This document shows, one piece after another, positions 32,712 to 51,453 of a stretch of 64,000 nt of DNA. The stretch is from the IMG/VR virus record IMGVR_UViG_3300037418_000840; one strand, written 5' to 3'. Below the pieces are notes generated by a model. The model saw nothing but the letters and a program-made list of their open reading frames with translations. It was not told the DNA's origin and did no database searches. Within the stretch, counting starts at the first letter, position 1. Each line of letters opens with the position of its first letter. Position numbers and translations under genes: made by a program. The stretch is from a virus. Lineage: Duplodnaviria > Caudoviricetes.

Positions 32712-32728
32712 AACCCTTTCGGTAGGTT
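32712..32728 (-). promoter_or_regulatory. conserved RBS hairpin (AACC-UACCGAAAG-GGUU)
   Basis: One of seven copies with a covarying stem. Confidence 0.75.
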
Positions 32729-32761
32729 GCGTGGTTGATGGATGCGCTTTGGGCGCACCTT

Positions 32762-32814
32762 ATTATACCACACAGCGCAAACGCGCAAGGACCGACTGTT
32801 GCGTAAAAACAACA
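32762..32814 (-). promoter_or_regulatory. extended -10 promoter with upstream TGTTG-N8-CAACA dyad
   Basis: TGGTATAAT; TTGCGC 15 nt upstream; dyad at 32797-32814. Confidence 0.8.
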
Positions 32815-32842
32815 CTCAAACGGGTCCGTAGACCAAGACTCC

Positions 32843-33238
32843 CTAGCCAAATTTTCGCTTACGAGCTCGTTTGGCAGGAGCCATGATCATGGTGTCGGAA
32901 CGCGTCAGGTTGCGTGCAAACTCACACGCCAGGAGCCATCCACTAACGATAGGGGCGAAGCGGGCGATAGGCGACGCCAGATCGTCAGCGAAGTGCGGGT
33001 CGATCCTACTATCAGCCGTCTTCTCGAGTTCTGCAAACGATGTGAACCCGCGATAGACCATGATCTTGCGGCCTTCGAAGTTCTTCGCGTCAGGGTACTC
33101 GACTTCAACCACAAGGACGGGGAACTGGCCGGTGTACAGTTCCTCACGGATCAGCCTGTAATTCGCTGGATCAGGTGCCGAGTTGGGCACTGCGTAGGGG
33201 CTGCTAGTGCAATTCTTGATTGGTGAGAGACCCATCAC
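32843..33238 (-). CDS. hypothetical protein
   Basis: YPDAKNFEGRKI...DPHF...SPIARFAP. Confidence 0.65.
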   Translation of the reverse strand: MMGLSPIKNCTSSPYAVPNSAPDPANYRLIREELYTGQFPVLVVEVEYPDAKNFEGRKIMVYRGFTSFAELEKTADSRIDPHFADDLASPIARFAPIVSGWLLACEFARNLTRSDTMIMAPAKRARKRKFG

Positions 33239-33759
33239 GGCTCCTGTTTGAGATGGTCAACATCGTAGACATAGCGAGCACCACCGTGACGAGGTGACGC
33301 CGATAGCCACGGGCCGATGTTGGCAAATGTTTGAAAGCGTTCTTCGTTTCGATTGTCGACCTGACCCAAGGGCACGCGTCCAGGCAACGAGTCAATGTCA
33401 CAATGGGCAAGCACCCAGCAAAGTCCACGCTCGGTCAACTGATAGACAGGCGACGCGTATTCTTGTGGAGGACCTCCTCGTATCGAGTAGCTGACGGGTG
33501 TCCGCCGCACTATCGTTAGATAACCCCGATGGGCCGCCATACGAACGCACAGTGAGACGTTGGTTCCCCGTCGTTCACGGCCAGTCCAGATGTGGCTGAA
33601 CGTAATTGGGGCCACTCGTATAAGATCGCGTGACTGAAGACCGCGTTCACTGTACGAAACGTTTCCTCTATACGCAGGATAGTAGACAAAGGCGGCCAAC
33701 ACCACACGAAGACGGACATCAGTATCCGGACCGACGACGGGGTTCGCGCGTCTACCCAT
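33235..33759 (-). CDS. hypothetical protein (possible winged-helix)
   Basis: Overlap-coupled; YQLTERG wing-like ending. Confidence 0.5.
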
Positions 33760-34480
33760 GTTGGCCTCCGTTGGAGAAGTAGAAGGACATGGCGTTCATC
33801 ATGTTGTCTTTGTTCAGTTCGGGAGCACACGCGTAGTCTTTCGCCAGATCCAAAGCCTTTTCATGAACTGCGATATCGGACAGGGCTACCGTGTGTAGCT
33901 TGTGCAACTGCTTGACCTTGTCACGCATCGTAAGGGCAAGCGGCGATTCCTCGAACGAGAAGCCAGTCTTGTGTTTGAAACGACGAAGCATGCTCTCGTA
34001 GCGAGAGATCTCCCGCTGCCAATCGGTGCGCATCCTGCGAATGTTCTCGATACCGCGCCGCAGATTTTCCTTGACGTCGACCACTGGATCATACATGTCT
34101 ATGTGGATTGGTATCTCTTCTGCCTTGGCCACTTCGTTGATCACTGACATGAAAACGGTGTGTACCAAGTCTTCAGCCATTCCATCGATCTCAGTTTGAG
34201 CCGGCTGTCGCGTCCCCGTCTTGTCGTAGTACTCGCGCTTGAACTTGTCGCTCAAATGCTCGTACGCCTCCTTGATCCGTTTAAACTTCTCGGCCGCGTC
34301 AGGATCACGACATTGATCTGGATGGTACTTCATGGCCGCAGCACGATACGCCTTCTTGATCTGCGCAGGTGTAGCCGTGCTGTCAATGCCGAGAATTGCG
34401 TACAGGTCCTCGGAAGTCGGATCTGGATCCAGATCAGGTTTAACCTCCGACAAAGCACTTACGCGAACGATGTTTCCCAC
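33752..34480 (-). CDS. J-domain (DnaJ-like) protein
   Basis: DLYAILGI...[15 protein letters not shown]...[13 protein letters not shown]. Confidence 0.9.
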
Positions 34481-34591
34481 GAGGGATTCCCCTTCGATGA
34501 TTAAGGACCGTCTGGTCCTGGCTTATGTGGAAGTAGGGGACCATCCGTCTGGAAGGCCCCCTACTGGAATATCTGTTATGACTTCAATGCT

Positions 34592-34599
34592 TATTTACT
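34592..34599 (-). promoter_or_regulatory. AGTAAATA promoter-like motif
   Basis: AT-rich intergenic gap upstream of the J-domain gene; hairpin at about 34533-34564. Confidence 0.5.
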
Positions 34600-34701
34600 G
34601 CTCAAGGAATGTGTGGTGCTATGGTAGTCCAGTACCATACTGAAAATGAGCCTAGGATCAAAAGCGTTGCACACCAGCAAATGAAGTTCCTCATGATGAT
34701 C

Positions 34702-35313
34702 TCACCACTTCATCCACGGACCGCGTGGAAAGCGCTCACTGAAGGGTGACCAGCTATCAGGCTTAGGGTCAACGAATCGCCATTCAAGGCTAAACGGCGT
34801 CTTGTCGTAGCTTTCATAGACGCATATCCGCGCAGCGTCTTCGTCTTCGGCACGCACTGCCGCACAGACAGTGCTTCCGTTCTCGGTAGTCCCTGAGTAC
34901 CACCAAGGACTGTGGAGTTCAAACGTGCCGTGGCCCTTGGTCTGCACCCACGAAATCCAGAAGGCTTTCAAGCCACTAGAGAAGTCCTCGACCGCCGCAG
35001 TGAACACCATATCACGGAAGTCAACAGGGACCTTCACGTTGTGGACCGCCACGTAATGACTGAAGCCCGAAGGCCATACGAATCCACGATGCGTGAACTC
35101 AGCACAGCCGTTGCCCTGACCACAGATACGACACCGGGAGATCCCACGATAGCGTTCTGCCTTGTTCAGGCGTTCAAGGTTGACTTCTACGCGACGAAGT
35201 GAGGCCAGGAACGGACCCTGACCTTCTTCAGGGGTGTCCTGCGCCACGGGCATTGGCAGATCAGGCTCGGTCGTCGACCGCCAGAAACCTACTCGTTGTG
35301 GTTTGTCCATCAC
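34702..35313 (-). CDS. two-domain hypothetical protein
   Basis: N-part YRGISRCRICG...WPSGFSHYVAVHNV; C-part WWYSG...EWRF. Confidence 0.7.
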   Translation of the reverse strand: MMDKPQRVGFWRSTTEPDLPMPVAQDTPEEGQGPFLASLRRVEVNLERLNKAERYRGISRCRICGQGNGCAEFTHRGFVWPSGFSHYVAVHNVKVPVDFRDMVFTAAVEDFSSGLKAFWISWVQTKGHGTFELHSPWWYSGTTENGSTVCAAVRAEDEDAARICVYESYDKTPFSLEWRFVDPKPDSWSPFSERFPRGPWMKW

Positions 35314-35825
35314 GTACCTCGCTTGATGATTTTACCGTCGATGATCTTGTCGCCCCAATCCAAGCCGATCTTGTGACCATCCACGTACTCGTTATAGTTG
35401 GGGTAGATCGCGTGCTTAACGTCGATCATATAGGTTGCAAAGTCGTGACGTCTTTCACCAAAACGGCGAACGATACGATGCGTCCCATCGATCAACAGGT
35501 GGTGCATTGTTGCCGTTCCTGCACCGTAGACCAAGACCATTGCAGGATCGTGTTCCCAACTCTCCTTGGGTAGGTCACGCACGCGATTAACGTCGATCAC
35601 ACGATCGGTCAACAGTTTGCCGATCACGTCAGAAATGCGAACATGCTCAACAGGTGCCAACGACGGATTGGCCTTAGCCCAGGTGCGCATGGCCGTCACG
35701 TCGAAAACTGTGACTGGACCATCATCAGGGTAGTAAGTGAAGCACTCGTGGAGTGCTCCGCTGTCGGCATTACGTTGAACCAACGCCATGATCTGACTCT
35801 TGGTCAGTTGATTATCGTTGCTCAT
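35310..35825 (-). CDS. ParB/Srx-like domain protein
   Basis: Probable start MSNDNQ; LLIDGTHR motif. Confidence 0.5.
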   Translation of the reverse strand: MSNDNQLTKSQIMALVQRNADSGALHECFTYYPDDGPVTVFDVTAMRTWAKANPSLAPVEHVRISDVIGKLLTDRVIDVNRVRDLPKESWEHDPAMVLVYGAGTATMHHLLIDGTHRIVRRFGERRHDFATYMIDVKHAIYPNYNEYVDGHKIGLDWGDKIIDGKIIKRGT

Positions 35826-35830
35826 GATGC

Positions 35831-36685
35831 CTACCAGGAAAGTCCGTATTGAGCCAGACCAGTTGTGATGAGACCAATCAAATCGTCGTTCTGCTCCGGA
35901 AGCTTGGGTTCCGTCCAGCCTCCAACGGCCCCACGTTCTTTGGCTCGGACAGCCAGGGTCTTCATCGACCATTCGATGTACGAATTGAGGACCGGACTCG
36001 CCGGACAATCCTCGAGCTCTTCACCAGCCTTCTTGCGCTGTAAGAGGTCTTCGATTGCGACCCGCACTTCGGGTGCGACTGGTGACGAGGCCAGCAGAGT
36101 CTCGAAGTTCATCGTAGGCATTGTCCCGTGGTCCAATACGTGGGTCGCACACAGGATGGGTCGTAACACGTACAGATACTTCTTGTAGCGAACCCGCTCA
36201 CCTTGTAGGTAGTCGCGAATATTGTTCTGGGCCATACTCACGTAGTTGCCGAACAGCGCGTGTTCAGACCAACGGGCGCGGCTCACGCTGATCAGCTGTT
36301 CGACCCATTGGTCAACCGTCTTGTACGTGATCGGCGACTGAAGCCATTCGTGCAGCGCTGGATTGCTGCGTTGGACTAACGACACAGCCTTAACCAAGTC
36401 CCAGCCGTGGAAGTCCAACACGTCCTTGGTTTCGGGATTGGTTACGAAGTGCGTGACCGAGTCCATGGAATTCGGATCGCCTTTACGGAGGAAGGGTGAA
36501 CTGATGTACCACATTTGGGGCTTGACGTAGATGAAGCGCACGTCGTAGTCGCTGTCCGTCGACGGGAAGCCCCACATACGGGATCCTGATTCGACAGCGA
36601 ATAGGACCGTCAGCTGGCGTTCTTTTTCCAGGACGCGCAGTTGGTCCTGGATAGCTTTTGTGTTGAGTTTGGTGCGATCGTCCAT
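35831..36685 (-). CDS. Pol-beta-fold nucleotidyltransferase (YcgL/RlaP-like)
   Basis: AVESGSRMWGFPSTDSDYDVRFIY; start reassigned to MDDRTK. Confidence 0.85.
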   Translation of the reverse strand: MDDRTKLNTKAIQDQLRVLEKERQLTVLFAVESGSRMWGFPSTDSDYDVRFIYVKPQMWYISSPFLRKGDPNSMDSVTHFVTNPETKDVLDFHGWDLVKAVSLVQRSNPALHEWLQSPITYKTVDQWVEQLISVSRARWSEHALFGNYVSMAQNNIRDYLQGERVRYKKYLYVLRPILCATHVLDHGTMPTMNFETLLASSPVAPEVRVAIEDLLQRKKAGEELEDCPASPVLNSYIEWSMKTLAVRAKERGAVGGWTEPKLPEQNDDLIGLITTGLAQYGLSW

Positions 36686-36692
36686 TTTAGCC

Positions 36693-37175
36693 TTAGCCTC
36701 GTAGTTCGTCGTAACTCTTATCGGAGAGACGGATGAGTCCGGCCATCTGCGCAGCCGGGCCTGAGAAATGTGGATTGCGGCGTTCGAAGTCAAGGATAGC
36801 ACTAAACAGTTGATCGAACGCCTGCACATACTTGTCGGTCTTCGGCCATTCTTGGCCCTTGTACGTTTGACGCAGCATCTTTGCCAGCGGGTTGAAAGCA
36901 CCAACGGCCATCACGTAATCCATGTGATTCTGGATCATGACCGTAGGTCCTGCTGAGTCCACGTTCTGCCCCTGACGCACAAGCTTCCTGCAGAAGTCTA
37001 TGAACTCACCTTCACCGAAGGTGACGAAGCCAAGGATTCCGGCATCAGGATCGGTGTCGACCACTGTGCCGTAGTCCTCGGCCAAGTCCAGTAGGTCTTC
37101 GTCTGAGAAGCCAAACGCATCTGGTGTCGACGCCGGCTCTTTGCTGGACCCAAGGGCGTAGCCTCGGCGTTCCAT
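36693..37175 (-). CDS. hypothetical protein
   Basis: Probable start MERRGY. Confidence 0.6.
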   Translation of the reverse strand: MERRGYALGSSKEPASTPDAFGFSDEDLLDLAEDYGTVVDTDPDAGILGFVTFGEGEFIDFCRKLVRQGQNVDSAGPTVMIQNHMDYVMAVGAFNPLAKMLRQTYKGQEWPKTDKYVQAFDQLFSAILDFERRNPHFSGPAAQMAGLIRLSDKSYDELRG

Positions 37176-37182
37176 GTCTTCT

Positions 37183-37497
37183 TCAAGAGAAGTAATAATG
37201 GGTGGTGACATTGTGCACGACATTGTGAATGTTGGGATTGGTGAACTTGAGGTCCGATACACAGATACAGGCGGCCCCAAGCTCGATGAGTGGTGTCTGC
37301 TGACCTCCAAAGGTATGACTCAGCAGGTCTAGAATTTCTGCAATGACCGACAAGGTCACCGGCTTGTTGTCTTTCAAATCAATGACAGCCGTGGCCCGAT
37401 ATTGACCACTGACTTGCTGCACGAATGCTCGGCGCACGGCGTCAATTTGGGTCAGACGGGACTCGACTAGTCGAAGATGAGCTTTCGGATATTCCAT
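37183..37497 (-). CDS. hypothetical protein
   Basis: Probable start MEYPKAH (GGAGG RBS). Confidence 0.6.
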   Translation of the reverse strand: MEYPKAHLRLVESRLTQIDAVRRAFVQQVSGQYRATAVIDLKDNKPVTLSVIAEILDLLSHTFGGQQTPLIELGAACICVSDLKFTNPNIHNVVHNVTTHYYFS

Positions 37498-37554
37498 AGG
37501 CAACCTCCTGGAGGAGGAACGTCTGTAGTAGCCCGTCCCTCGGAATTGGGTACG

Positions 37555-38784
37555 TCAGGACACTTCCTCATTACGACGGAGCTCCATTCGCCCTTCGTCA
37601 ACAAGAGTGAATTGGTTGAGCGTCGAACTATTGCCTGGACCACCGTGTCGACGAACCGCGTCTTCGACGGTCGACGCTAACGCATTGACCCCAAACATCT
37701 CGGACACGTTGAGGTCCACGGCCTTCAGCATGTGGAACATGTGAAAGATGAGACGCGGGTCACTCACATTGAGAGTCAGATGATAGCCGGGCGGCTCCTT
37801 GTCATTGGCTTGACTAAGCATAAAGCCCTTGACCTTTGCTCGCTCAGGTAACTGGTGGTCGACCATCAACGACACCGTCTTCTGATACGGATCTTCCCCA
37901 CACGTGAGAGCCAGGGCCAGGCTAAGCCCACGACCACTCTTCGGCTTGTACCACGGAAAGATTTGGATTGACAGGCCAGCCGCTTGATACAAGGTGGTTA
38001 ACGACTTATCCGAAGCCCGACCAAGCCAGTCGCAGCGTGCTTGCTTGTCTTCGTCAGACAGCGTCGTCTCATTGAACACAGGATGTTCCGCCGCGCGACG
38101 TGCACGCTCGGCGGGCGATCGGGCCACACTTTTCTGTTCGCTATCCTCGTCGTCATCATCATCGTCATCGTCATCTGCCTCTTCTTCGTCTTCTTCGTAT
38201 CGACTACGGCGCGGTGCTTGTCGTTTGGTGGGCACACCGGTTCGGAACCGAATCGGATCGCTTTGTGCCCAGAGCATGCGCAGCACTGCTCTCTTCAGAT
38301 TCGTATCGATGGTGTCGCTTACGTTTTCCAGCACGTAGTAGATGAACGCAAAGCGATCGCCGAAAACTTGATGTTGGAACAACTCGTTCCACAACGAGTG
38401 GTTGAAACGCATTGACCTGTAATGATTGAACCAGTCGATCACTTGCTGGTCGGTCGTGCATTTGAAGTACGATGCAAAGGCTTCGTGCACGATCGTGGGC
38501 TGGTCGCTGACTTCAATTCCAAAGTCGTTGAGGAACGTGTTGAACTTACCTCGTATGACACTGGACAGATGGTAGTCGTAGAACTTCTGGTACTCGACCG
38601 GATCGAAGAACGCACCATTGGACAGTGCCCAGGTGCAGTCGTCGGGATCACCGAGCAAAGGTATCACATAGAGTGGTATGCGCACGTCCTTCATGTCGTT
38701 ATGAGTGGAAAAGAACGAGACCATGCGGGTGTAGCCGGGGATGCATGCCTTGATTTCTTTCAAGGTTGCCAACGTCGTGTACAT
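37555..38784 (-). CDS. hypothetical protein with an acidic tract
   Basis: Start MYTTLATL (GAGAGG RBS); poly-D/E linker. Confidence 0.75.
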   Translation of the reverse strand: MYTTLATLKEIKACIPGYTRMVSFFSTHNDMKDVRIPLYVIPLLGDPDDCTWALSNGAFFDPVEYQKFYDYHLSSVIRGKFNTFLNDFGIEVSDQPTIVHEAFASYFKCTTDQQVIDWFNHYRSMRFNHSLWNELFQHQVFGDRFAFIYYVLENVSDTIDTNLKRAVLRMLWAQSDPIRFRTGVPTKRQAPRRSRYEEDEEEADDDDDDDDDEDSEQKSVARSPAERARRAAEHPVFNETTLSDEDKQARCDWLGRASDKSLTTLYQAAGLSIQIFPWYKPKSGRGLSLALALTCGEDPYQKTVSLMVDHQLPERAKVKGFMLSQANDKEPPGYHLTLNVSDPRLIFHMFHMLKAVDLNVSEMFGVNALASTVEDAVRRHGGPGNSSTLNQFTLVDEGRMELRRNEEVS

Positions 38785-38867
38785 TCGAACCTCTCTTTTT
38801 GGTGTAGGTAGAAACACGAAAGGCGAGACCATTCGGCCTCGCCCCAAGATGAACTACGTTTTGTCGT

Positions 38868-39587: not shown

Positions 39588-39630
39588 AATTAGTTCCTCA
39601 GGTTGGTTGATGATACTGCACTACACACTT

Positions 39631-39638
39631 CATTTACT
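39631..39638 (-). promoter_or_regulatory. AGTAAATG promoter-like motif
   Basis: About 44 nt upstream of the ATG at 39587. Confidence 0.5.
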
Positions 39639-39660
39639 ACTGAACGATGCTCAGCCTAAA

Positions 39661-40674: not shown

Positions 40675-40675
40675 G

Positions 40676-42406: not shown

Positions 42407-44406
42407 AACGGAATCCTATACTTGCGGCAGAAATCCGGCCAATGCATCGCCTTGGATCCCGCCTTGTTGATCTTGTCCATGAACTTGGCACCCTTGCGCC
42501 ACAGTAGGACATCCATCTTTGGACCGTAGGACACAACCTCGCCGCCGTAGCGAACGATCGTAGCCTCTTGCTCGGTATCACGATACGATGTGAACGCAAC
42601 GTGAACACCGGTCAGCGGGCCAGTGATTGACCGCTTCTTAGCAGGAAGATCCCCGTTGACTTTGAGATACTTGGCGATAGGCTTGTACCAACGACGGAAC
42701 TGAAGGACGCCATCGTATATGATGTCGGCCGTCTTTTCACTGAAACCCTTGATCTGGGTCACCGTCGGTACGATACGCTCGGCCTTCATGTTGCAGAGGT
42801 CACGCATAGACAAGCCAGCGGCTTCCAACTGCTCGAGCTTGCGGCGGCCCATGCCACCGCGTTCGAAGCACCCGCTGGCAACCATCAGTTTCTTCAAAGG
42901 GATGGTCTTCGACAACACGTCGTGCAACGACTTGACCATGTTGTAGGCTTCGCCCTCACCGAAACCTGCGTCGACGAATCGCTGTTGGAAATCAACGATA
43001 GCCCGGGAACCTCTCACGGTCGTCTTCATAAAGAGACCTTTGCCTCTCACCACCTTTTCCTTGACTACAGGAGGAGTCATAGTGGCTACGGGTACGAAGG
43101 CGTGCGTCGTCGTGAATCCAGCGTCGTACAGTTTGGACAAGCGCTTCAATGCGAGTTGCTCGATCCCCAGGCTGGTCATGAAGTGATGGATGCCACGGAG
43201 CTCCGTCTGCTTGTCGTGATCCAGCATGTAGAAGAATCGGCCTCGGATTTCGTATGGACCCGGAGGCGGCACAAACTTTGCCTTCTTCACAACACCAACG
43301 ATCTTGGGGATGACGCCACCGCTGCGTAACACCTTGACCACCGCACCGGGACCTATTCCACGCTCCATCAGCCATGCGGGATTATGGGCTGTCGCGTTTG
43401 TAACTGTGACACCGTCCATCTTGGTTGGCGGGATCGTAATCTTGGGTTGCCAACGCTTGAGTCGTGTTTTCTGCCAGACGAAAGACTTGACCACGACCTG
43501 GTCAGCCCCCTCCTCGTCGTTGAACTTGAAGGCAACGAGCTCCTTGGGGCGATCGTTGTTCGCATAGTTGAGAACGAATCCCGAATCGGCCAAGACCAAG
43601 CCGTCCATCTCATAGACGCTAGTCTTGCGTTCAGCGTCCAACACGGCAGACAGAGTGTCTGCCGTTATGGTCGAAGGCCGGACCAAATCGTGGGCCACCA
43701 CGTTGAATCCCCATTTGCGGGCATGGTGCAGACCGCTGGCAAGCGAGTAGCCATAAACCCCGAGGACCACGAGATCGATATCTGACAGTGCCGGATGTTC
43801 CTCCTTGCGGTTGAACACACCATTGACCCCATTGCGGATATTGTCCCAACCGAGCTTGGCCCCTGCCGCCTTCTTGGTCCATTTGGCCTTGAAGGTCTTC
43901 AACTTCATCAAGCCTTCAAGGCGAAACACTACCTGCGTGGATTCCGCAGGAATCGTGGCCGGAATGAGCTTGCGTCGCAGAAGCCATGGAATGAAGAACG
44001 AGATGTCACCACCCAGAAGGCCATCACCTCGCGTGATCAACCGTGTGGGCTTTAATCGCTTGGACCGGCCCTCGTATACGAGTTGTAGACTGGTCCCGTC
44101 CAGCTTGTGCATGCGGATCCATGAAGTGATCCGACGTGCCCACGGCTTGCGCACCAACTTGGGCACGCCTTCGGGATAGAACTTATCGAGCGACGGCATT
44201 GGCTTGACCAACTCGACTTCAGTCTTCTTGTCAGCAACACGGGTCCCAGTCGCACGCAGTGGCTTCCACTTCGGATCAGCCTCACGGATCTCATCCTCGA
44301 GACGATCGAACTTGGCATCCGACATGATCGGTTGCTCGTTGTAGTAGGCGGCGCGCGCCCGCTCATACAACGCCTTCTTTTCGGCAAGCGTCTTTGCAGT
44401 TGCCAT
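42403..44406 (-). CDS. ligA: NAD-dependent DNA ligase
   Basis: Domain Ia YY...PIMSDAKFD, MPSLDK, KLDG adenylation motif, EMDGLV, AFKF, OB fold RSGGVIPKI, BRCT-like end. Confidence 0.93.
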   Translation of the reverse strand: MATAKTLAEKKALYERARAAYYNEQPIMSDAKFDRLEDEIREADPKWKPLRATGTRVADKKTEVELVKPMPSLDKFYPEGVPKLVRKPWARRITSWIRMHKLDGTSLQLVYEGRSKRLKPTRLITRGDGLLGGDISFFIPWLLRRKLIPATIPAESTQVVFRLEGLMKLKTFKAKWTKKAAGAKLGWDNIRNGVNGVFNRKEEHPALSDIDLVVLGVYGYSLASGLHHARKWGFNVVAHDLVRPSTITADTLSAVLDAERKTSVYEMDGLVLADSGFVLNYANNDRPKELVAFKFNDEEGADQVVVKSFVWQKTRLKRWQPKITIPPTKMDGVTVTNATAHNPAWLMERGIGPGAVVKVLRSGGVIPKIVGVVKKAKFVPPPGPYEIRGRFFYMLDHDKQTELRGIHHFMTSLGIEQLALKRLSKLYDAGFTTTHAFVPVATMTPPVVKEKVVRGKGLFMKTTVRGSRAIVDFQQRFVDAGFGEGEAYNMVKSLHDVLSKTIPLKKLMVASGCFERGGMGRRKLEQLEAAGLSMRDLCNMKAERIVPTVTQIKGFSEKTADIIYDGVLQFRRWYKPIAKYLKVNGDLPAKKRSITGPLTGVHVAFTSYRDTEQEATIVRYGGEVVSYGPKMDVLLWRKGAKFMDKINKAGSKAMHWPDFCRKYRIPL

Positions 44407-44407
44407 C

Positions 44408-44551: not shown

Positions 44552-44772
44552 TGGTCACCGACCACCTCTGTGAGCTCGACTTCGAGCATGAAGCGGGCTT
44601 CCTCTTCAGAGAGGCCCTCTTGCATCATGAAGCCTACAAGTTGGGCATCATAGCGACCGTCTCGTACAGCAGGGGCTACCTCACCATAAAGGAGCATGAG
44701 TTTGCCAACTGCGATGAGCAGGGCCGCGCGTTGCTTGATGATCTCGGGCGGGACCGTAACTTTGGTGTTCAT
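44548..44772 (-). CDS. hypothetical protein
   Basis: Tiling. Confidence 0.6.
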   Translation of the reverse strand: MNTKVTVPPEIIKQRAALLIAVGKLMLLYGEVAPAVRDGRYDAQLVGFMMQEGLSEEEARFMLEVELTEVVGDQ

Positions 44773-44805
44773 GGCAATTCCCTATTTTCGTATGCGTGAA
44801 AGTGC

Positions 44806-44831
44806 GAAAGGGGAAGCACGAAGGCTTCCCC
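44806..44831 (-). terminator. intrinsic terminator
   Basis: GGGGAAGC/GCTTCCCC followed by TTT. Confidence 0.75.
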
Positions 44832-44844
44832 AAGAATTCCTGCC

Positions 44845-45639
44845 TTACTTCTCGATGCGGATACCGAACTTGTCGGTGATGAGGCGATGGATGCTGTCCG
44901 TGCCATTGACGTACGTCAGATTCTGGCCGCGTAGCCCATCGAGATTGCCCTTACACCACTTGGTCTTGAACGTGAAGTCCATGGTGTCCATCGTGTTCTT
45001 AACCCGCTTCAGCCCCTCGTCCCCGTCGAGGAAGAAGAAGTGGACGTGACCCTGGTACGTTTTCTCCAACGAATTGCGTTGCGCACCTTGGAGGCCAAGG
45101 ACCAGAATCTTAGGCAAGCGCTTGGCCGGCTGTGACGCCGTGACTTCGGAGACAGGGGTCGGTTGCGAAAGAGCCGGGTCAGGCGGGAGCATACCGGGCA
45201 GACGGCGATCGAGTACCGCGTTGATCTCCTCACGCATGAGGCGACGCTGCGTCTCGGGGTCCATCATGTGGACAATTCGCTTCATGAACTCGCCCATGAT
45301 CTCGGCTGTCGTGAACTTATCGAGCGACAGATTTGTCTGGAACTGCTGCACTACATCGTGTTCGATCTTGGGGCTGACGACGGGTTGAATGGCCGCACGT
45401 TTCGGCGCTGCGCGGTGGCCCTTGGCCACGAGCTCACGCCAGATCGGCTGGACGAAATCTGCTTGCTGCATCTGGGTCAACTCTCGCCAATCAGCGGGGT
45501 CCACCAGTTCACGCATTGCCACACGGATCGCTTCCAGATCGGTGTCTGCCCAATTCGAATCGGTCTTAATTTCGAAGGCGCGCACTGCGATTGCGTGCTT
45601 GACATCCGACTTCCAGAAGATGCGACGTTGTTTCGGCAT
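44845..45639 (-). CDS. hypothetical early protein
   Basis: Directly downstream of a dyad promoter and an RBS hairpin. Confidence 0.75.
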   Translation of the reverse strand: MPKQRRIFWKSDVKHAIAVRAFEIKTDSNWADTDLEAIRVAMRELVDPADWRELTQMQQADFVQPIWRELVAKGHRAAPKRAAIQPVVSPKIEHDVVQQFQTNLSLDKFTTAEIMGEFMKRIVHMMDPETQRRLMREEINAVLDRRLPGMLPPDPALSQPTPVSEVTASQPAKRLPKILVLGLQGAQRNSLEKTYQGHVHFFFLDGDEGLKRVKNTMDTMDFTFKTKWCKGNLDGLRGQNLTYVNGTDSIHRLITDKFGIRIEK

Positions 45640-45647
45640 GATGATTA

Positions 45648-45662
45648 GTCCTTTCGATAGAC
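45648..45662 (-). promoter_or_regulatory. conserved RBS hairpin (GUC-UAUCGAAAG-GAC)
   Basis: One of seven copies. Confidence 0.7.
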
Positions 45663-45722
45663 GGGTAAGTTTTGAGGCCCTTCACGGTCCGGCCTCGATT
45701 GAGTGGGCGTCGCCCACGCCCT

Positions 45723-45775
45723 ATTATACCATGTGCGGGCGGCGCGCAAGTTACGAGTGTTGCGTTTATACAACA
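45723..45775 (-). promoter_or_regulatory. extended -10 promoter with upstream TGTTG-N8-CAACA dyad
   Basis: TGGTATAAT; TTGCGC 15 nt upstream; dyad at 45758-45775. Confidence 0.8.
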
Positions 45776-46107
45776 GTGGGTGGCGCGTCGGCTGCGACGG
45801 TTAGGGCGCGAAATTCGTCCTCGGTTATAGGGAGTGCCAACGCATCGCCCTGACGGTTGAACGTCATCGGCACACGTTCACCAGCACGAATCGACGCATA
45901 CGCGAGATGCTCAGGTGCCAGGATGATGCCCGACACCCAGGTAGGTCCTAGGACCGGTCGCGTAGGCGCATCGATCTGATGAACTTCGATCACAATGGCA
46001 CCAACGAAGTTGAGACTCAGGATGATTGCCCGATCGCCACGTTTCAGTGAATCGATCCGGACTTGACGGCCTTGACCTTTGTGAAAAGCTTCCAGGATAG
46101 GCAGCAT
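45766..46107 (-). CDS. hypothetical protein
   Basis: ORF following a terminator. Confidence 0.6.
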   Translation of the reverse strand: MLPILEAFHKGQGRQVRIDSLKRGDRAIILSLNFVGAIVIEVHQIDAPTRPVLGPTWVSGIILAPEHLAYASIRAGERVPMTFNRQGDALALPITEDEFRALTVAADAPPTVV

Positions 46108-46126
46108 GGTCTTCTCGCTTGCTATG

Positions 46127-46155
46127 AAAAAGCGGGAGGACCTTGGCCCTCCCCG
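46127..46155 (-). terminator. intrinsic terminator
   Basis: GGGAGG/CCTCCC stem followed by TTTTT, downstream of acpP. Confidence 0.75.
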
Positions 46156-46199
46156 TAAAGCTGACGCGCCGCACGCAGGCAGCGCGTCAGCGCCACAAC

Positions 46200-46436
46200 T
46201 TAGATCTTGCGATTGGCCCTCACGTAGTTAGCGACATCATTGATGGTCGAGAACTTCTCGGCTTCTTCATCAGGGATCTCCATACCGAACTCGTCTTCGA
46301 ACATCATGACGAGCTCGACCGTGTCGAGGCTATCGGCCCCGAGATCATCCACGAACTTGGTTTCCGGGGTGATCTGATCACTCAAACCCAGGTGTTCGGC
46401 CGTCAGCTTGATTACGCGTTCCAGAATGTTGTCCAT
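46200..46436 (-). CDS. acpP: acyl carrier protein
   Basis: [34 protein letters not shown] with the phosphopantetheine Ser intact. Confidence 0.95.
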
Positions 46437-46475
46437 CAGCGGTCCTCTATGTTGGTTGGGGTCAATACTGCTTTC

Positions 46476-46483
46476 TATTTACT
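46476..46483 (-). promoter_or_regulatory. AGTAAATA promoter-like motif
   Basis: About 40 nt upstream of acpP. Confidence 0.55.
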
Positions 46484-46491
46484 GCCCCATT

Positions 46492-46683
46492 TCAGTCGTG
46501 GCCGTGTACCGAATTGCGTTGAATCAGGTCGAAGGCACGCGCAGCCCCGCACGAAAAGGCGATCGTATGCTCGATTCCCCTGTGATGACATGTCTTGTTG
46601 GTGACGAACGGACACCGGTCTTTGAACGGACATTCGGTCCGGGCCGGAATCTTCCCGTTGATGAGGAGTGTCATTTGTCCCAT
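46492..46683 (-). CDS. small Cys-rich protein
   Basis: CPF...CPF...CHH...FSCG. Confidence 0.6.
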   Translation of the reverse strand: MGQMTLLINGKIPARTECPFKDRCPFVTNKTCHHRGIEHTIAFSCGAARAFDLIQRNSVHGHD

Positions 46684-46684
46684 A

Positions 46685-46948
46685 TCAGAACCCGTAGGCG
46701 GTTTTCATGTCAGTGGGCGACATGTGCTGTTCGCTGGGCAATCCGCTGTCCATCTGGGCGATGACGATTCGTCCTGTATGAAGGTTCGTCAACAGGTTAT
46801 CCCATTCGACATGGATCCAGGACGGACGGATGTCACCACGTCCGACACGGAAACGCCACGTCAGGCGATCGACGTTGAGCTTGGCCGTCTGCGTTTCTTC
46901 GATCTGCTGCAGAACGAACGCGGCTTGTGCTTGAGTCAAGAGGCTCAT
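46685..46948 (-). CDS. hypothetical protein
   Basis: GGAG RBS. Confidence 0.6.
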   Translation of the reverse strand: MSLLTQAQAAFVLQQIEETQTAKLNVDRLTWRFRVGRGDIRPSWIHVEWDNLLTNLHTGRIVIAQMDSGLPSEQHMSPTDMKTAYGF

Positions 46949-46960
46949 GTTGATCTCCGA

Positions 46961-47632
46961 TTACTGATCATCGCTTTCGGGAATGGTTCCATTTTCAGCT
47001 ACTTCGGGATCACGCCATTCGCCATGACCGATCAACTCGCGTTCGGTCTGGCTCATTTTGCGCAGGACCGCGTCACGACGACGAATCTTCTCTTCTTGCT
47101 CCCGTCGATAGGCTATCACGCGCTCGAGCGCCTCTTTGATATGCTTGAACTCCCATTCCTCACTTCGGAGGGAGAGCCAATGCTCACCTTCCTCAAGGCG
47201 ATCTTCGCCCGGCGTATAGATCTCGAACCGAACAGCGGGGCACCCCATATTCTCCTCGAGCAACGTCGTGTGGTCTTTGTAATCAGGGATGAAATGAGTG
47301 CTGACTCGCGTTCCGTGGGCCTTCGATCGAGACAAAAGGCTGGCGATGGTCATCAAGTCAAAGATGCGGATCTTCTTGGCATCAGCCTCCTTGGACGTCA
47401 ACTCCTTGACAACCTTGCCTGCAACGGCCGCCGACTTCTTGGTCTTAGACCTAATTGCGTCAGCCAACGTGACGGGGACTGCGCCGATCCGATCGGGGTG
47501 TAAGCCAATGGTCGACTTGGTCTTACGTTTCGTGACCGAGGTCTTCGGAGGCGGTTCCACATAGGGACCAACTGCGCGGCGGCTGATCGTCGGGTCCATC
47601 GAGGAAACTTTGCTCTTCTTCGTCTTTGCCAT
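46961..47632 (-). CDS. hypothetical protein with a basic N-terminus
   Basis: Probable start MAKTKKSK. Confidence 0.6.
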   Translation of the reverse strand: MAKTKKSKVSSMDPTISRRAVGPYVEPPPKTSVTKRKTKSTIGLHPDRIGAVPVTLADAIRSKTKKSAAVAGKVVKELTSKEADAKKIRIFDLMTIASLLSRSKAHGTRVSTHFIPDYKDHTTLLEENMGCPAVRFEIYTPGEDRLEEGEHWLSLRSEEWEFKHIKEALERVIAYRREQEEKIRRRDAVLRKMSQTERELIGHGEWRDPEVAENGTIPESDDQ

Positions 47633-47640
47633 TTTGCACC

Positions 47641-47835
47641 TTACAGATTCAGATACGACATCATCAGTTGATGGAAGACCACCATATCGCACGTCGGTTC
47701 GTATGGGGACGGCGAATAGGCGGCGGTCAAACTTAGGGCTGCGTGCGCGAACTCGGGACTGATTCCGGTCTGCTTGAGGTACTGACCTGCGATGAACAGT
47801 TCAGTTAGCTCATAGATGTTGCGTGGCGTGTTCAT
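47641..47835 (-). CDS. hypothetical protein
   Basis: Tiling. Confidence 0.5.
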   Translation of the reverse strand: MNTPRNIYELTELFIAGQYLKQTGISPEFAHAALSLTAAYSPSPYEPTCDMVVFHQLMMSYLNL

Positions 47836-48097
47836 CGGTTGGGATCCTCACCGGAGGGCGATTGTAGAACTGGACGCGCTTGATTCGCGGATCAAACGGC
47901 CACCGTGCGCCCTCGGGCTTGAGACAAGCCCCAACGTAGACAATGACCGGCCGCCCACGATGGACCAAGGGCTCTTTGCAGATCTCCTCACACCAGAACT
48001 CCGGTCGGCGCGAGGCCATTCGGCGAAGTTGAAACAGGACGACGCGAATGCGTGCTACCAGAATTGTCAGGGTCTCCATGCGTCTCATGCTTTTCAT
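47810..48097 (-). CDS. hypothetical protein
   Basis: ATGA overlap with the upstream stop. Confidence 0.4.
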   Translation of the reverse strand: MKSMRRMETLTILVARIRVVLFQLRRMASRRPEFWCEEICKEPLVHRGRPVIVYVGACLKPEGARWPFDPRIKRVQFYNRPPVRIPTDEHATQHL

Positions 48098-49011
48098 TTT
48101 TCGATATCAAATGGACTGATTCCAAATCCCGAGAGGGTAAACTTACGCACACGTTCTCCCAGGTCTTCGTCTACAAAGCGGATTGCGTATGGTGTGCCCG
48201 AACCACCAAACGTGTCGAACGGATTGTGACCCATGCACATTCCATGGGCAGACCCTTCCTTCAAGGCATCGATGATTTGATCCTTGTTCCATTTGAAGAG
48301 CCCGCCCTCCAGGGGATTCCGAACCTCGACGGTGCGCCCAAGGAGTTTTGCCAGTTCGGCCTCCTCACGCAAGTCCTTGAACTGGATAGGTTCCTTGTTG
48401 TACCACTTGTAGACCAATCCGCGTTCGGCCAATGCCAAACTACTCTGCCGTAGGTACTGGAGACCACGACTACGGCCCATGCTGTCGTACAAGCGTACAC
48501 CATATGAGGGGTCTTTGTCGAAGTCCTCCCACTGATACTGGATCGTCTGGACGATGCCGTATGCCCCGCCGTCCGTAACGCCAGAACGCCACAGTAGATG
48601 AACACGATCCTGTTCCCAGAACAGGGTTGGCGGTAGGTCACCGACGCGGACTGTATTGAGCAGCCGGTCCTTGATCTCATTGTATGAATCAAGGTTCTTC
48701 TTGAGAACGGGTTGCACCCATTCCACGTCCTGACGACGTTGTGCTTCTTGCAGATCGGCTAAGACCAACGAGTAGTCATCTCCATCGGTGGTCTCACCGG
48801 TTTCCCACTGGACAACACAGGTCCCATCGATCTCGTAGACGCCATGTGTGTCCGCACGATAGCCAATGCGTTCACGGTAACGGAGGACCCGCGTCTTGCT
48901 GAGGACCTTTCCGCGCACACCGTCGGCAGGTCCCGGACGACCCCAGCTACGGGCCTCGGGGTCCATCTTCATAATGACTTCGTCACCAGGACGAAAGAGT
49001 TCGGACATCAT
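48094..49011 (-). CDS. hypothetical protein (SH3/KOW-like beta modules possible)
   Basis: FRPGDEV and FWEQDRV repeats of KOW-like starts. Confidence 0.7.
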   Translation of the reverse strand: MMSELFRPGDEVIMKMDPEARSWGRPGPADGVRGKVLSKTRVLRYRERIGYRADTHGVYEIDGTCVVQWETGETTDGDDYSLVLADLQEAQRRQDVEWVQPVLKKNLDSYNEIKDRLLNTVRVGDLPPTLFWEQDRVHLLWRSGVTDGGAYGIVQTIQYQWEDFDKDPSYGVRLYDSMGRSRGLQYLRQSSLALAERGLVYKWYNKEPIQFKDLREEAELAKLLGRTVEVRNPLEGGLFKWNKDQIIDALKEGSAHGMCMGHNPFDTFGGSGTPYAIRFVDEDLGERVRKFTLSGFGISPFDIEK

Positions 49012-49073
49012 AGTGTTTCTCACTGTAAGATTAGGAGTTGAACGACGCTACGCTTTGCGTTGTCTAATAAGAC

Positions 49074-49556
49074 CTAGACCACTTGATGGTTGGCGACCTG
49101 CATGTTCGGGTAAGACTTGGCATAGCCGTTCAGCCATTCCGGCCCCACCTTGCGCTTACTGGTTTTGAACTCAGTGGGCATTTCGTTCTCGTCGAGATCC
49201 GACTTAGAGAAGGCGACAAGATAGCCACGACGAGCCGCGTCTCTCATCTTGAGCAGCATCTGCGCACGACAGAAAAGGAAGGCCACGAAGCTTTCACTGC
49301 TGAAGAAGCCGAAGGGGCCGGCGTTGTTCGCCCACTTGAGCAGCGCTTCGCGCTCGCCGCTATCGACGTTGGGGAAGAAAGTGACTGCCATACCAGTCGG
49401 GTCCAGCACGTTGTCGCCCTTAGCTTCTGCGATCTTGCGCGTACCCCGATAAAGGTTGGCGACCCAACTGCCATCGGCAGCGATCACCATCTTGTTCATG
49501 CTGTATTCGCCACAGATGGCACGGAAGCGTGCTATGACGTCGATTTCGTTCTTCAT
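49074..49556 (-). CDS. hypothetical early protein
   Basis: Start reassigned to MKNEIDV after the RBS hairpin. Confidence 0.7.
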   Translation of the reverse strand: MKNEIDVIARFRAICGEYSMNKMVIAADGSWVANLYRGTRKIAEAKGDNVLDPTGMAVTFFPNVDSGEREALLKWANNAGPFGFFSSESFVAFLFCRAQMLLKMRDAARRGYLVAFSKSDLDENEMPTEFKTSKRKVGPEWLNGYAKSYPNMQVANHQVV

Positions 49557-49561
49557 GTTCG

Positions 49562-49578
49562 TGTCCTTTCGATAGACA
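49562..49578 (-). promoter_or_regulatory. conserved RBS hairpin (UGUC-UAUCGAAAG-GACA)
   Basis: One of seven copies. Confidence 0.75.
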
Positions 49579-49603
49579 GAGATGGTTCGAGGCACAGCCT
49601 AGT

Positions 49604-50191
49604 CTAGCTGTGCATCAGCTGCAACAGATTGGCCGATCGCTTAGTCGGAGCTACCTTGAAGCCCGCCAACTTGCGTTGTCCGATGATCCGGGTGTAACAC
49701 GCGGCCACCAAATCGTAGCGTTCGGCACTGAGATGCCGAAGTAGGTCAGGATTCAGTATGAACAGACGATGGGCCTCCGCGAAGTCTTCCTGCCAGCAGG
49801 AACGCGCATAACTGGTCACTGCGTGACGACGATCGTTGGCAAACAGATCACGTTGAAGCTGGATCAGCGTTCGCGCCCGAAGTTCATAGAGCTTGAACTG
49901 GACGAGGTGCCCGATCTCATGGGCAAGAACACCAGTAGGACTCATGTCGGATTTGCCGCACGGCGCCGAGTAGGGACTTGCCGCACGGAACTTGACCGTT
50001 CCCTTTGCCGATAGATGAACATGACCCTGCGGTGTGGCATAGCCACGACTACCGTCGTTGATCACTGGGTCTATCACCAGACGGTTGAACCCAACTGCTT
50101 TATGGAAATCAGAATTGAGGAGTACCGCCGGAGCATTGTCCAGGATGGACTGGCGGCAGAGTTCATAGTTCTCGACAGGAGAGCGAGCCAT
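49604..50191 (-). CDS. zincin-like metallopeptidase
   Basis: LAHEIGHLV plus downstream SYA...QEDFAE third-ligand motif. Confidence 0.75.
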   Translation of the reverse strand: MARSPVENYELCRQSILDNAPAVLLNSDFHKAVGFNRLVIDPVINDGSRGYATPQGHVHLSAKGTVKFRAASPYSAPCGKSDMSPTGVLAHEIGHLVQFKLYELRARTLIQLQRDLFANDRRHAVTSYARSCWQEDFAEAHRLFILNPDLLRHLSAERYDLVAACYTRIIGQRKLAGFKVAPTKRSANLLQLMHS

Positions 50192-50200
50192 GATTGGGAT

Positions 50201-50217
50201 TGTCCTTTCGATAGACA
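50201..50217 (-). promoter_or_regulatory. conserved RBS hairpin (UGUC-UAUCGAAAG-GACA)
   Basis: One of seven copies. Confidence 0.75.
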
Positions 50218-50230
50218 GAGAAATCGTTGG

Positions 50231-50581
50231 TCAAACAGCGCCCAGGGCTTCGAACAGATCGTTCAGGATCTCGTTGATCGAACCCGGTATCGTGTAGACT
50301 TCTTCGCCGTCGGTCATGGCGATCATGAGTTCGCCAGTGACATCATCGGCATCACCGCTGCTGATGTCTTCACCGCAGCAGATGGTGCGCAGACCTTGCT
50401 CATCGAAGTCGGCAAGCCATGCTTCGACCGTGTCAAGCCGATCGACTTCGCCTTTGGCCTGCAAATCATTGACCACGAGGTCATACGACGGTTGCACGAC
50501 GTCGAGACCAAAGCCCGTGTCCACGGCCATGAGGGCCAGACATTGCATGATCTTGGGATGTTTCGCTTGTTGCTCGTTCAT
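50231..50581 (-). CDS. acidic hypothetical early protein
   Basis: Start reassigned to MNEQQAK after the RBS hairpin. Confidence 0.7.
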   Translation of the reverse strand: MNEQQAKHPKIMQCLALMAVDTGFGLDVVQPSYDLVVNDLQAKGEVDRLDTVEAWLADFDEQGLRTICCGEDISSGDADDVTGELMIAMTDGEEVYTIPGSINEILNDLFEALGAV

Positions 50582-50587
50582 AGCAGT

Positions 50588-50604
50588 CACCCTTTCGATA
50601 GGTG
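50588..50604 (-). promoter_or_regulatory. conserved RBS hairpin (CACC-UAUCGAAAG-GGUG)
   Basis: One of seven copies. Confidence 0.75.
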
Positions 50605-50657
50605 GTTGATTAGAGGCCCCGGAGGGCCTCACGCTGATTTGGCTTAGTAGCCAAAGT

Positions 50658-51080
50658 TCAAACGAAGAAGCCGATGCTCAGATCGTCTGGCTTCTGAATT
50701 CCGTGGCTTACACCTTCCGTCTCGTACCACTTCAACAGTTCCGTCATTGCTGTGTGTACCGCTTCACGAGTGAAGTACATGACGGGCTGTACCATGTCGT
50801 CCTGGGTCTTAACCCACTTCGGCGCGAAGATCAAGCCGTGCATATGGAACCCAGCGAAGAACTCCGACTTGGCGAACGGCGTTTGATCATTACCGCTCAC
50901 AATGAAAAACGGTCGCACGCTTTGGTATCGCGCTTCGAGCTCAGCATGCGGGAACTTGCGTCGTTCTTCGGCCCTACGAGCTAGACGCTCTTCCTCGACA
51001 CAGTTCGGGCACTGCCGATCATACGCATACTTGTGTTTCATGCAGTAGCCGGAGGTCTTGCTAGGAATCTTGCGTGTCAT
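50658..51080 (-). CDS. hypothetical early protein with a Zn-knuckle-like N-terminus
   Basis: Start MTRKIPSK; C..H...CPNC. Confidence 0.7.
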   Translation of the reverse strand: MTRKIPSKTSGYCMKHKYAYDRQCPNCVEEERLARRAEERRKFPHAELEARYQSVRPFFIVSGNDQTPFAKSEFFAGFHMHGLIFAPKWVKTQDDMVQPVMYFTREAVHTAMTELLKWYETEGVSHGIQKPDDLSIGFFV

Positions 51081-51086
51081 GTCTTG

Positions 51087-51103
51087 TACCTTTTCGATAG
51101 GTA
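51087..51103 (-). promoter_or_regulatory. conserved RBS hairpin (UACC-UAUCGAAAA-GGUA)
   Basis: One of seven copies. Confidence 0.7.
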
Positions 51104-51111
51104 GATGTACC

Positions 51112-51132
51112 AAAAGGAGCCCGAAGGCTCCT
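51112..51132 (-). terminator. intrinsic terminator
   Basis: AGGAGC/GCTCCT stem around CTTCGG, followed by TTT. Confidence 0.75.
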
Positions 51133-51142
51133 CACGATGCTG

Positions 51143-51430
51143 TTACTCGGCTTTGTCGACAGTATAGCCCTCAAGGTGCATATCGAGCATGCCGACGATG
51201 CGAACGACTTGTGTATGTACGGCCGTCGCACATGCGAACCAGCCGTCATTGTCCCAGTGCAGCGTCTCGAGCGTCCGCTCCCCCTTGTATGATTTCGGGT
51301 GAAGTCCAATCGCTACGATAAGCGCGATCTCGTTGGGTGCGTCGTTCCATGTAAGCTCGACCCACTGCCCTACTTTAAGATCTGCTACGTTGACACCGTG
51401 CTTGTTGATGCGGAAGTCAGGCTTTGCCAT
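51143..51430 (-). CDS. hypothetical early protein (SH3-like)
   Basis: Start MAKPDFR; LKVGQWVEL. Confidence 0.7.
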   Translation of the reverse strand: MAKPDFRINKHGVNVADLKVGQWVELTWNDAPNEIALIVAIGLHPKSYKGERTLETLHWDNDGWFACATAVHTQVVRIVGMLDMHLEGYTVDKAE

Positions 51431-51434
51431 TGTG

Positions 51435-51453
51435 TAACCCTTTCGGTAGGTTA
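51435..51453 (-). promoter_or_regulatory. conserved RBS hairpin (UAACC-UACCGAAAG-GGUUA)
   Basis: One of seven copies. Confidence 0.75.

Follow-up and report, generated by a model that had tools for sequence, protein, structure and literature searches.

A short RNA hairpin, 17–19 nucleotides (nt) in size, covers the ribosome-binding site (RBS) of seven genes in IMG/VR record IMGVR_UViG_3300037418_000840, a 64,000-nt stretch of DNA (hereafter ‘the window’) which, judged by its sequence, comes from an uncultured soil jumbo phage related to Ralstonia phage phiRSL1. The hairpin has a 4-base-pair (bp) stem whose sequence is free, an invariant C–G closing pair and a 9-nt loop, YAYCGAAAR, and hairpins of the same design are found at the ribosome sites of related phages. 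It belongs to an RNA motif family that, although of a general kind already known, is itself undescribed; as far as sequence can tell, it marks the early class of genes in at least four phage genera, ‘early’ being a class inferred from promoter type. The best explanation, to which we would give a probability of roughly 0.45, is that the element acts as a class-wide translational operator on early messenger RNAs (mRNAs) and is read by a putative trans-acting factor. The window covers 64 kb of a genome of ~232 kb.

Seven hairpins over ribosome-binding sites

The motif TAYCGAAAR is found eight times in the window, always on the minus strand, which is also the strand of all of the long open reading frames (ORFs); shuffled sequences contained a mean of 1.32 and a maximum of five copies, and none of 100 shuffles reached eight. 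In seven of the eight copies the loop is flanked by 3–5 complementary bases, which make up six different stem sequences (Table 1). The background chance of at least three Watson–Crick pairs across a 9-nt gap is 0.019, and their presence in seven of eight copies corresponds to p ~1e-11. In each of the seven the ATG follows 8–13 nt past the loop, equivalent to 4–9 nt past the stem, and independent gene calls on Logan contigs place the starts of the hairpin genes at the same ATGs. An initial annotation of this DNA, made from the sequence alone, had reported seven copies lying 4–9 nt before an ATG, and both the pattern count and inspection recover them with the stems that it listed. The genes behind the hairpins encode ORFan proteins of 95–264 amino acids (aa), and a covariance model search found no copy at the remaining genes of the window. 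The eighth occurrence of the loop motif is probably a chance or decayed copy, approximately one chance copy being expected.

It could be argued that the element is nothing special, namely an extended Shine–Dalgarno sequence whose flanks pair by chance, or a single sequence that was copied several times in the recent past. The loop is indeed in part Shine–Dalgarno sequence, and copies 49566 and 50205 have 21 identical bases in common; however, this explanation is largely refuted by the frequency of stems given above, by the compensatory changes among the six stem sequences, and by the presence of the design in four phage genera with different loops; beyond the element itself, the flanks cannot be aligned.

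Table 1. Positions of the RBS hairpins, early promoters and associated features in the window
Feature	Position	Strand	Remarks
RBS hairpin 1, UAACC-UACCGAAAG-GGUUA	51435..51453	-	ATG at 51430, 4 nt on
RBS hairpin 2, UACC-UAUCGAAAA-GGUA	51087..51103	-	ATG at 51080, 6 nt on
RBS hairpin 3, CACC-UAUCGAAAG-GGUG	50588..50604	-	ATG at 50581, 6 nt on
RBS hairpin 4, UGUC-UAUCGAAAG-GACA	50201..50217	-	ATG at 50191, 9 nt on; HEIGH-motif protein
RBS hairpin 5, UGUC-UAUCGAAAG-GACA	49562..49578	-	ATG at 49556, 5 nt on
RBS hairpin 6, GUC-UAUCGAAAG-GAC	45648..45662	-	ATG at 45639, 8 nt on
RBS hairpin 7, AACC-UACCGAAAG-GGUU	32712..32728	-	ATG at 32707, 4 nt on
Eighth loop motif, TATCGAAAA	48098..48106	-	End of upstream coding sequence, adjoins ATGA overlap start; no stem in register
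Extended -10 (TGGTATAAT), early promoter 1	51538..51546	-	TTGCAC -35, GTTGT..ACAAC dyad upstream, GC dyad just downstream
Extended -10, early promoter 2	45723..45731	-	Build as in promoter 1
Extended -10, early promoter 3	32762..32770	-	Build as in promoter 1
ORFan run	49074..51430	-	Five small genes (95, 140, 116, 195, 160 aa), one hairpin apiece
Terminator-like GC hairpin and U tract	51112..51133	-	Between gene 1 and hairpin 2

Conservation and covariation in related phages

The marker proteins of the window are phage-like and include a large helicase, a head-tail connector, an NAD-dependent DNA ligase and a topoisomerase IB, the last of which is 60% identical to that of the jumbo phage phiRSL1, 50% to that of Burkholderia phage BCSR5 and 47% to that of Achromobacter phage Motura. 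No near-identical record was found among deposited phages, and contigs from soil and rhizosphere, with lengths of up to 231.6 kb, also carry the window phage.

In phiRSL1 there are 13 clear copies of the hairpin and one degenerate copy, all of them on the coding strand at the ribosome sites of early operons. They take the form (C/U)CUCC-CAUCGAAA(C/A)-GGAG, followed by 5–7 nt and then the ATG, the exceptions being one UUUCC/GGAAA stem and one loop of the window type (UACCGAAAG). These copies are found either behind promoters of the same build as those of the window (GTGTTG..CAACAC, TTGCAC, TGGCATAAT) or at the next genes of the operons concerned. Copy 30953 heads the ligase operon, as does copy 45651 in the window, where the hairpin gene at 45639 is the first of an operon containing the NAD-dependent DNA ligase; the degenerate copy, 43583, precedes the orthologue of the window gene that starts at 51430 (g51430). 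Two metagenome relatives carry ACUCC-CAUCGAAAC-GGAGG (L224) and CUGUC-UUACGAAAG-GGCA (L226), the latter ahead of the orthologue of the window gene that starts at 50191 (g50191). Ten ribosome-site hairpins with variable stems and the loop RAAGAAAG were found in BCSR5, and four with the loop AAGGAAAA in Motura. Common to all are a C–G (or equivalent) closing pair, a loop of 8–9 nt with GAAAN at its end, and a distance of a few bases from the stem to the ATG. No such loops were found in two more distant relatives (L097 and L098, ~41% identity to g50191), pattern- and protein-based scans of IMG/VR for more relatives returned only phiRSL1 and single matches that look like chance, and model R1 found no second copy anywhere on those IMG/VR loci.

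The window and phiRSL1 copies share a covarying 4-bp stem, the C–G closing pair, the loop YAYCGAAAN and the sense orientation, with the ATG 8–13 nt past the loop. Model R1 scores the seven window copies at 24–28.5 bits and the 13 phiRSL1 copies at 27.7–30.7 bits, and a covariance model built from these 20 copies found, beyond them, only copy 43583 of phiRSL1 in 788 kb of related genomes. When the 20 copies are aligned, bases are paired in 79 of the 80 cells of the four inner pairs, and three of the pairs vary on both sides; the covariation score is 0.507 compared with 0.141 after shuffling (0 of 500 shuffles reach it), and slid registers all score 0.105 or less. The ten BCSR5 copies, taken as a separate set, score 0.458 compared with 0.116. 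The compensatory change of the stems, proposed in the initial annotation, thus holds in a larger alignment, which had been set beforehand as a refutation test. Across the two genera, loop positions A2, C4 and G5–A8 are invariant in all 20 copies, and the stems and ATG spacers differ. As copies within one genome are paralogues, the counts of compensatory cells are not independent, and the stronger argument comes from the six window stems and the loop types of four genera.

No match to Rfam 15 was found over the whole window at the gathering score. At the E-value threshold, the only match in 49400–51600 was a chance one to a CRISPR repeat model, which lay on the other strand and scored 22.5 bits where the cut-off is 45 bits. 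The earlier impression that no named family fits is therefore correct for Rfam, and the element turned up in none of the full-text literature searches.

Several further observations concern the phiRSL1 genome (NC_010811). A possible additional copy, GGC-CAUCGAAAC-GCC, lies at 201286–201300 (minus strand) in the 5' untranslated region of the Dda-like helicase ORF291; its ATG is ~34 nt on, its 3' arm lacks a Shine–Dalgarno sequence, and it could be a chance match (~2 exact 9-mers are expected in the genome). The annotated starts of ORF061 (30890), ORF087 (43520), ORF315 (213594), ORF337 (227679) and ORF339 (228331) are upstream of the promoter or hairpin, with hairpin-proximal ATGs in frame with those annotated starts at 30971, 214197, 227790 and 228415, which suggests that these ORFs have been annotated too long; in its annotated length, ORF315 (‘HicB-like’) would have a promoter within it. 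At 43604, the first codon of the g51430 orthologue is ATC instead of the ATG of its relatives.

Restriction to one class of promoter

Three promoters on the minus strand of the window share one build, in which a GTTGT..ACAAC dyad is followed by TTGCRC, 15 nt, TGGTATAAT and a GC dyad. They are sigma-70-type promoters. The first gene behind each (promoters 32770, 45731 and 51546; 3/3) has a hairpin, and behind promoter 51546 the hairpin is repeated on every one of five small genes in a row; the placement of the seven genes behind three look-alike promoters was already recognized in the initial annotation. The build is common to the window (32762–32830, 45723–45790 and 51538–51600, minus strand) and phiRSL1 (~16810, 30870, 43960 and 207740) and comprises a GTGTTG..CAACAC dyad upstream of the -35, TTGCRC, and the extended -10 TGG(C/T)ATAAT. 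In both phages all copies of the hairpin are in the sense orientation behind this one build. A fourth strong extended -10 promoter (TGGTACAAT; 63820–63848, minus strand, 63828) is of a different build, with neither dyads nor an RBS hairpin. The placement behind early promoters is seen in the sequence of both the window and phiRSL1, and dependence on the host RNA polymerase is known for phiRSL1 only, which has no RNA polymerase gene and is rifampicin-sensitive (PMC5468394). In BCSR5 a similar dyad was seen only ~10 nt upstream of the RBS hairpins, and its place relative to the promoter seems to be different.

Position and size also invite a reading at the DNA or transcription level, as a hairpin promoter for a phage RNA polymerase, a hairpin-dependent pause site by which ribosome loading would be synchronized, or a recombination cassette like the PeSL elements of phage T4. 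Hairpin-dependent pause signals have a similar stem and loop size (4–5 bp and 8–9 nt) and a similar distance to the ATG, and PeSL elements mark the 5' edge of hypervariable ORFan genes, where the present element is also found. These readings are nevertheless improbable, since phiRSL1 lacks a polymerase of its own and is rifampicin-sensitive, and canonical sigma-70-type promoters are found upstream of the hairpins. Moreover, pausing needs no fixed loop, the fixed ATG spacing and the embedded Shine–Dalgarno sequence point to a role in the mRNA, and copies have only 9–11 nt of sequence in common, which is less than homologous recombination needs.

The Shine–Dalgarno component and predicted folding

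The 16S ribosomal RNA (rRNA) genes of Burkholderiales end in CACCTCCTTTCT (this being the gene sequence, from which the mature rRNA end may differ). GAAAGG(A/G), a sequence that extends from the loop into the 3' arm of the hairpin, is complementary to CCUUUC of this 3' end and lies at a normal aligned distance from the ATG, so that the initial proposal of a Shine–Dalgarno sequence straddling loop and arm is confirmed. All seven hairpin genes have this tail-shifted GAAAGG(A) type, and most other genes of the window have GGAG, AGGAG or AAGGA. Conservation of the loop is consequently, in part, just that of a Shine–Dalgarno sequence, and in BCSR5 (AGAAAGGA) and Motura (AAGGA) nearly all of the loop is of this kind. 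What such pairing leaves unexplained is loop positions 1–4 (YAYC, with the A and C invariant) and the stem itself, and in phiRSL1 AUCGAAA is retained in the loop although it is the GGAG in the 3' arm that forms the Shine–Dalgarno sequence of that phage. The ‘nearly invariant 9-nt loop’ of the initial annotation therefore survives for A2, C4 and G5–A8 among the 20 copies, but is partly Shine–Dalgarno sequence; only CGAAA is fixed in the wider sample, and the loops of two related genera are made up of purines only.

These findings bear on the main rival explanation, that the hairpin is a purely cis-acting means of presenting the Shine–Dalgarno sequence, with no dedicated factor. An extended Shine–Dalgarno sequence directed at the 16S tail would be stacked on the 3' side of the loop behind a G-poor leader, and the 30S subunit would nucleate pairing fast and then melt the 4-bp stem, giving strong and context-independent initiation on early genes. 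The complementarity and spacing of GAAAGG(A/G) are as this explanation expects, the leaders upstream of the stems are G-poor, the loops of BCSR5 and Motura fit it well, and no trans-acting factor was found in protein scans. It does not account for the invariant A2 and C4, or for Y1 and Y3, in 20 copies from two genera, and most of the phage's remaining genes lack a hairpin of this kind.

The effect of the stem on exposure was predicted by partition-function folding of ~120-nt contexts, in which the 5' arm was either intact or swapped for non-pairing bases. The mean pairing probability of the hairpin was 0.66 in the window, 0.34 in phiRSL1 and 0.68 in BCSR5. Breaking the 5' arm changed the unpaired probability of the loop Shine–Dalgarno sequence from 0.76 to 0.71 in the window, from 0.68 to 0.65 in phiRSL1 and from 0.88 to 0.64 in BCSR5, and in all three the intact stem reduced the accessibility of the 3' arm. 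The BCSR5 stem would thus lift loop exposure, as the cis-acting explanation requires, but in the window and phiRSL1 predicted exposure is unaffected; furthermore, the 3' arm sequestered in phiRSL1 is the GGAG itself, which through its pairing with CUCC is hidden rather than presented. In silico, therefore, the stem does not appear to be an exposure device in the window's clade. Presentation purely in cis is, in our view, a serious rival, somewhat less probable than the operator reading. The predicted stability of the hairpins is marginal (~ -2.6 kcal/mol for one of them), and hairpins as weak as this fall within the range in which a bound factor would decide the outcome.

A candidate translational operator on early messages

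A hairpin with a fixed loop and a free stem that is present on several mRNAs is the usual signature of a protein operator, as in the iron-responsive element/iron regulatory protein (IRE/IRP) system, MS2, PP7 and T4 gp43. The element found here has such an operator signature: its loop is fixed, its stem is free in sequence yet paired, its stability is marginal, and it sits at the ribosome site of many mRNAs of the same class. According to the operator reading, the hairpin would form in the translation-initiation region of early mRNAs that are transcribed by the host RNA polymerase. The Shine–Dalgarno sequence is made up of the loop's 3' half together with the initial bases of the 3' arm, and the 5' half of the loop and the shape of the stem, conserved without carrying information for ribosome pairing, may be read as a class tag. 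Through this tag one trans-acting factor could address all early messages together. The simplest candidate is a protein that the phage makes once infection has begun. It would act either as a repressor, clamping the weak hairpin over the ribosome site, or as an endoribonuclease specific for the hairpin, and in both cases early protein synthesis would be timed or shut off, in parallel with the DNA dyads of the promoters. We infer the existence of this factor, its identity and the direction of control from the pattern described above.

Four points weigh against the operator reading. In the wider sample the 5' half of the loop varies, with L226 reading UUAC, and only CGAAA is constant. In BCSR5 and Motura the loops (RAAGAAAG and AAGGAAAA, respectively) consist almost wholly of Shine–Dalgarno sequence, which fits a role in cis. 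The Pfam models for RegA (PF01818) and RegB (PF10715) are silent in phiRSL1, BCSR5 and Motura, a weak result given that they are silent in the control genomes too. Lastly, a scan of 40 window proteins against Pfam and PHROG identified no RNA-binding or nuclease domain. Of the protein-bound operator and regulon proposed in the initial annotation, a covarying RBS hairpin on one promoter class has been borne out; no RegA or RegB homologue was found in phiRSL1, BCSR5 or Motura, and no RNA-binding domain in the scanned set of 40 window proteins. A more specific and more tentative version of the operator reading is that a phage protein, repressor or hairpin nuclease, reads a private tag on every early message, and that tag and reader co-evolve between genera; the proposed tag types would be YAYCGAAAN in the window phage and phiRSL1, RAAGAAAG in BCSR5 and AAGGAAAA in Motura.

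The product of g51430 was considered as a candidate factor by fold and set aside, the AlphaFold model being unusable (predicted local distance difference test, pLDDT, 34). Its ESM Atlas neighbours are Tudor/SH3-like (the RapA N-terminal domain and the HelY SH3), a fold used for binding RNA polymerase or RNA, and are noted as a lead only.

The reader of the loop could also be an RNA, if AUCGAAA were the target of antisense or kissing-loop pairing. One intergenic hairpin of the window (8262–8297, minus strand) contains UUUCGAU, but its predicted fold, a UUCG tetraloop on a stem of 11 bp, buries the bases that could pair with the loop. There is no enrichment of complementary 7-mers (8 in the window against 7.8 expected, and 6 in phiRSL1 against 14 expected), and no counterpart of the partner was found in phiRSL1, BCSR5 or Motura, the search of the window phage having covered 64 kb of ~232 kb. 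An antisense partner is thus very improbable.

Comparison with known regulatory systems

By function, and on analogy, the nearest systems appear to be T4 RegA and RegB. The hairpin operators of MS2, PP7 and gp43 come close as well, and the element does not belong to any of these systems. Binding at the MS2, PP7 and gp43 operators blocks entry of the 30S subunit, each operator serving one mRNA and having another loop or a bulged A, and the MS2 and PP7 hairpins include the start codon. The present element resembles the MS2, PP7 and T4/RB69 gene 43 operators as a ribosome-site hairpin with a specific loop and a free stem (PMC3014915 and general knowledge). Unlike them, it is found on 7 to ~14 mRNAs per genome and has no bulge. 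CsrA/RsmA is a global translational regulator that binds GGA in a loop overlapping the Shine–Dalgarno sequence. Shine–Dalgarno-like purines in or at the loop and the many mRNAs are points of likeness, and the AAGGAAAA loops of Motura would fit; unlike CsrA/RsmA sites, however, the loops of the window and phiRSL1 lack GGA (YAYCGAAA contains none, and GGA is confined to the junction of loop and stem or to bases beyond it; in the window it occurs in only three of seven copies, at the junction).

Other folds were tried and rejected. A lambda-type boxB/GNRA fold has a GNRA-like loop of 4–5 nt closed by a conserved pair. In the window, C[GAAA]G could close in this way, but loop position 9 is C or A in phiRSL1, so that the inner GNRA-type pair is not conserved, and the position at the ribosome site also differs. 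A GNRA or anticodon-loop-like loop was dropped since it fails in phiRSL1 and BCSR5. N4-type DNA hairpin promoters have a 5–7-bp stem and a 3-nt loop and are used by a virion RNA polymerase; the loop here is 9 nt, and the lack of a polymerase gene and the rifampicin sensitivity of phiRSL1 again apply.

T4 RegA represses translation of ~30 early mRNAs at the ribosome site (PMC3014915). The proposed system is like the RegA regulon in that one regulator would act on many early messages, at or beside the initiation region, and shut off early synthesis. It is unlike it in that RegA operators are unstructured, A+U-rich and include the AUG, whereas here a covarying hairpin lies upstream of the AUG. 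T4 RegB is an endoribonuclease that cuts GGAG/U in early Shine–Dalgarno sequences in an S1-dependent manner, its consensus GGAGRAYARAA being single-stranded and protected from cleavage by structure (PMC3014915). An early-specific mark within the Shine–Dalgarno region is common to both, and RegB inactivates early mRNAs as a class; unlike RegB targets, none of the seven window copies contains GGAG. Finally, in the ‘split’ initiation regions of T4 genes 25 and 38 a hairpin between the Shine–Dalgarno sequence and the AUG shortens their spacing (PMC3014915). These are likewise local hairpins in an initiation region, acting there in cis on initiation, but in the present element, whose Shine–Dalgarno sequence is part of the loop and 3' arm, the distance to the AUG is normal from the outset.

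Hairpin genes and further features of the window

Gene g50191 (49604–50191, minus strand) encodes 195 aa with a HEIGH (HExxH) motif, as read from the DNA. It shares 59% identity with phiRSL1 ORF038, and soil metagenomes contain a small number of homologues. The initial annotation counted a metalloprotease in the regulon; the motif is there, and as neither Pfam nor PHROG gave a match, that name rests on the motif. In phiRSL1, ORF038 has no hairpin of its own and starts directly after the stop of the hairpin-led ORF037. Gene g51430 (51143–51430, minus strand), the first behind its early promoter, is the sole hairpin gene with recognizable relatives in phiRSL1, BCSR5 and Motura, and a protein database search returned no homologues besides the phage's own. 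The order of GC hairpin, ~10 nt and RBS hairpin seen before the second gene of the ORFan run recurs before 50592 (GC hairpin at 50613–50630) and in Motura.

Contigs from root and wastewater metatranscriptomes contain parts of the early region. One of them (50989–51522) spans two hairpins and ends ~9 nt short of the predicted start site; as contigs are blind to ends, strand and level, and DNA carry-over is possible, they were not counted as evidence. Elsewhere in the window, three tandem 8-nt units (GTCTAAGC) lie behind gene 8335–8835 (8262–8335, minus strand) and are followed by the very stable 11-bp UUCG-tetraloop hairpin mentioned above. The real start of the GTG-started ORF 7998–8294 is probably an ATG near 8242.

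Implications for jumbo phage biology

Little is known of how early genes are timed in jumbo phages that depend on the host RNA polymerase. The element appears to mark the early class in phages of plant-associated and opportunistic Burkholderiales, and with phiRSL1 on Ralstonia solanacearum there is a culturable model in which it offers a testable way into post-transcriptional control. The hairpin could also be used as bait for a new RNA-binding regulator or nuclease. As it pinpoints true start codons, it is also a tool for annotation. If the element works in cis only, nature would have supplied in it an insulated module for ribosome sites, of interest to the design of expression in Burkholderiales; if the operator reading is true, these phages would possess a second, RNA-level timer beside their promoter operators.

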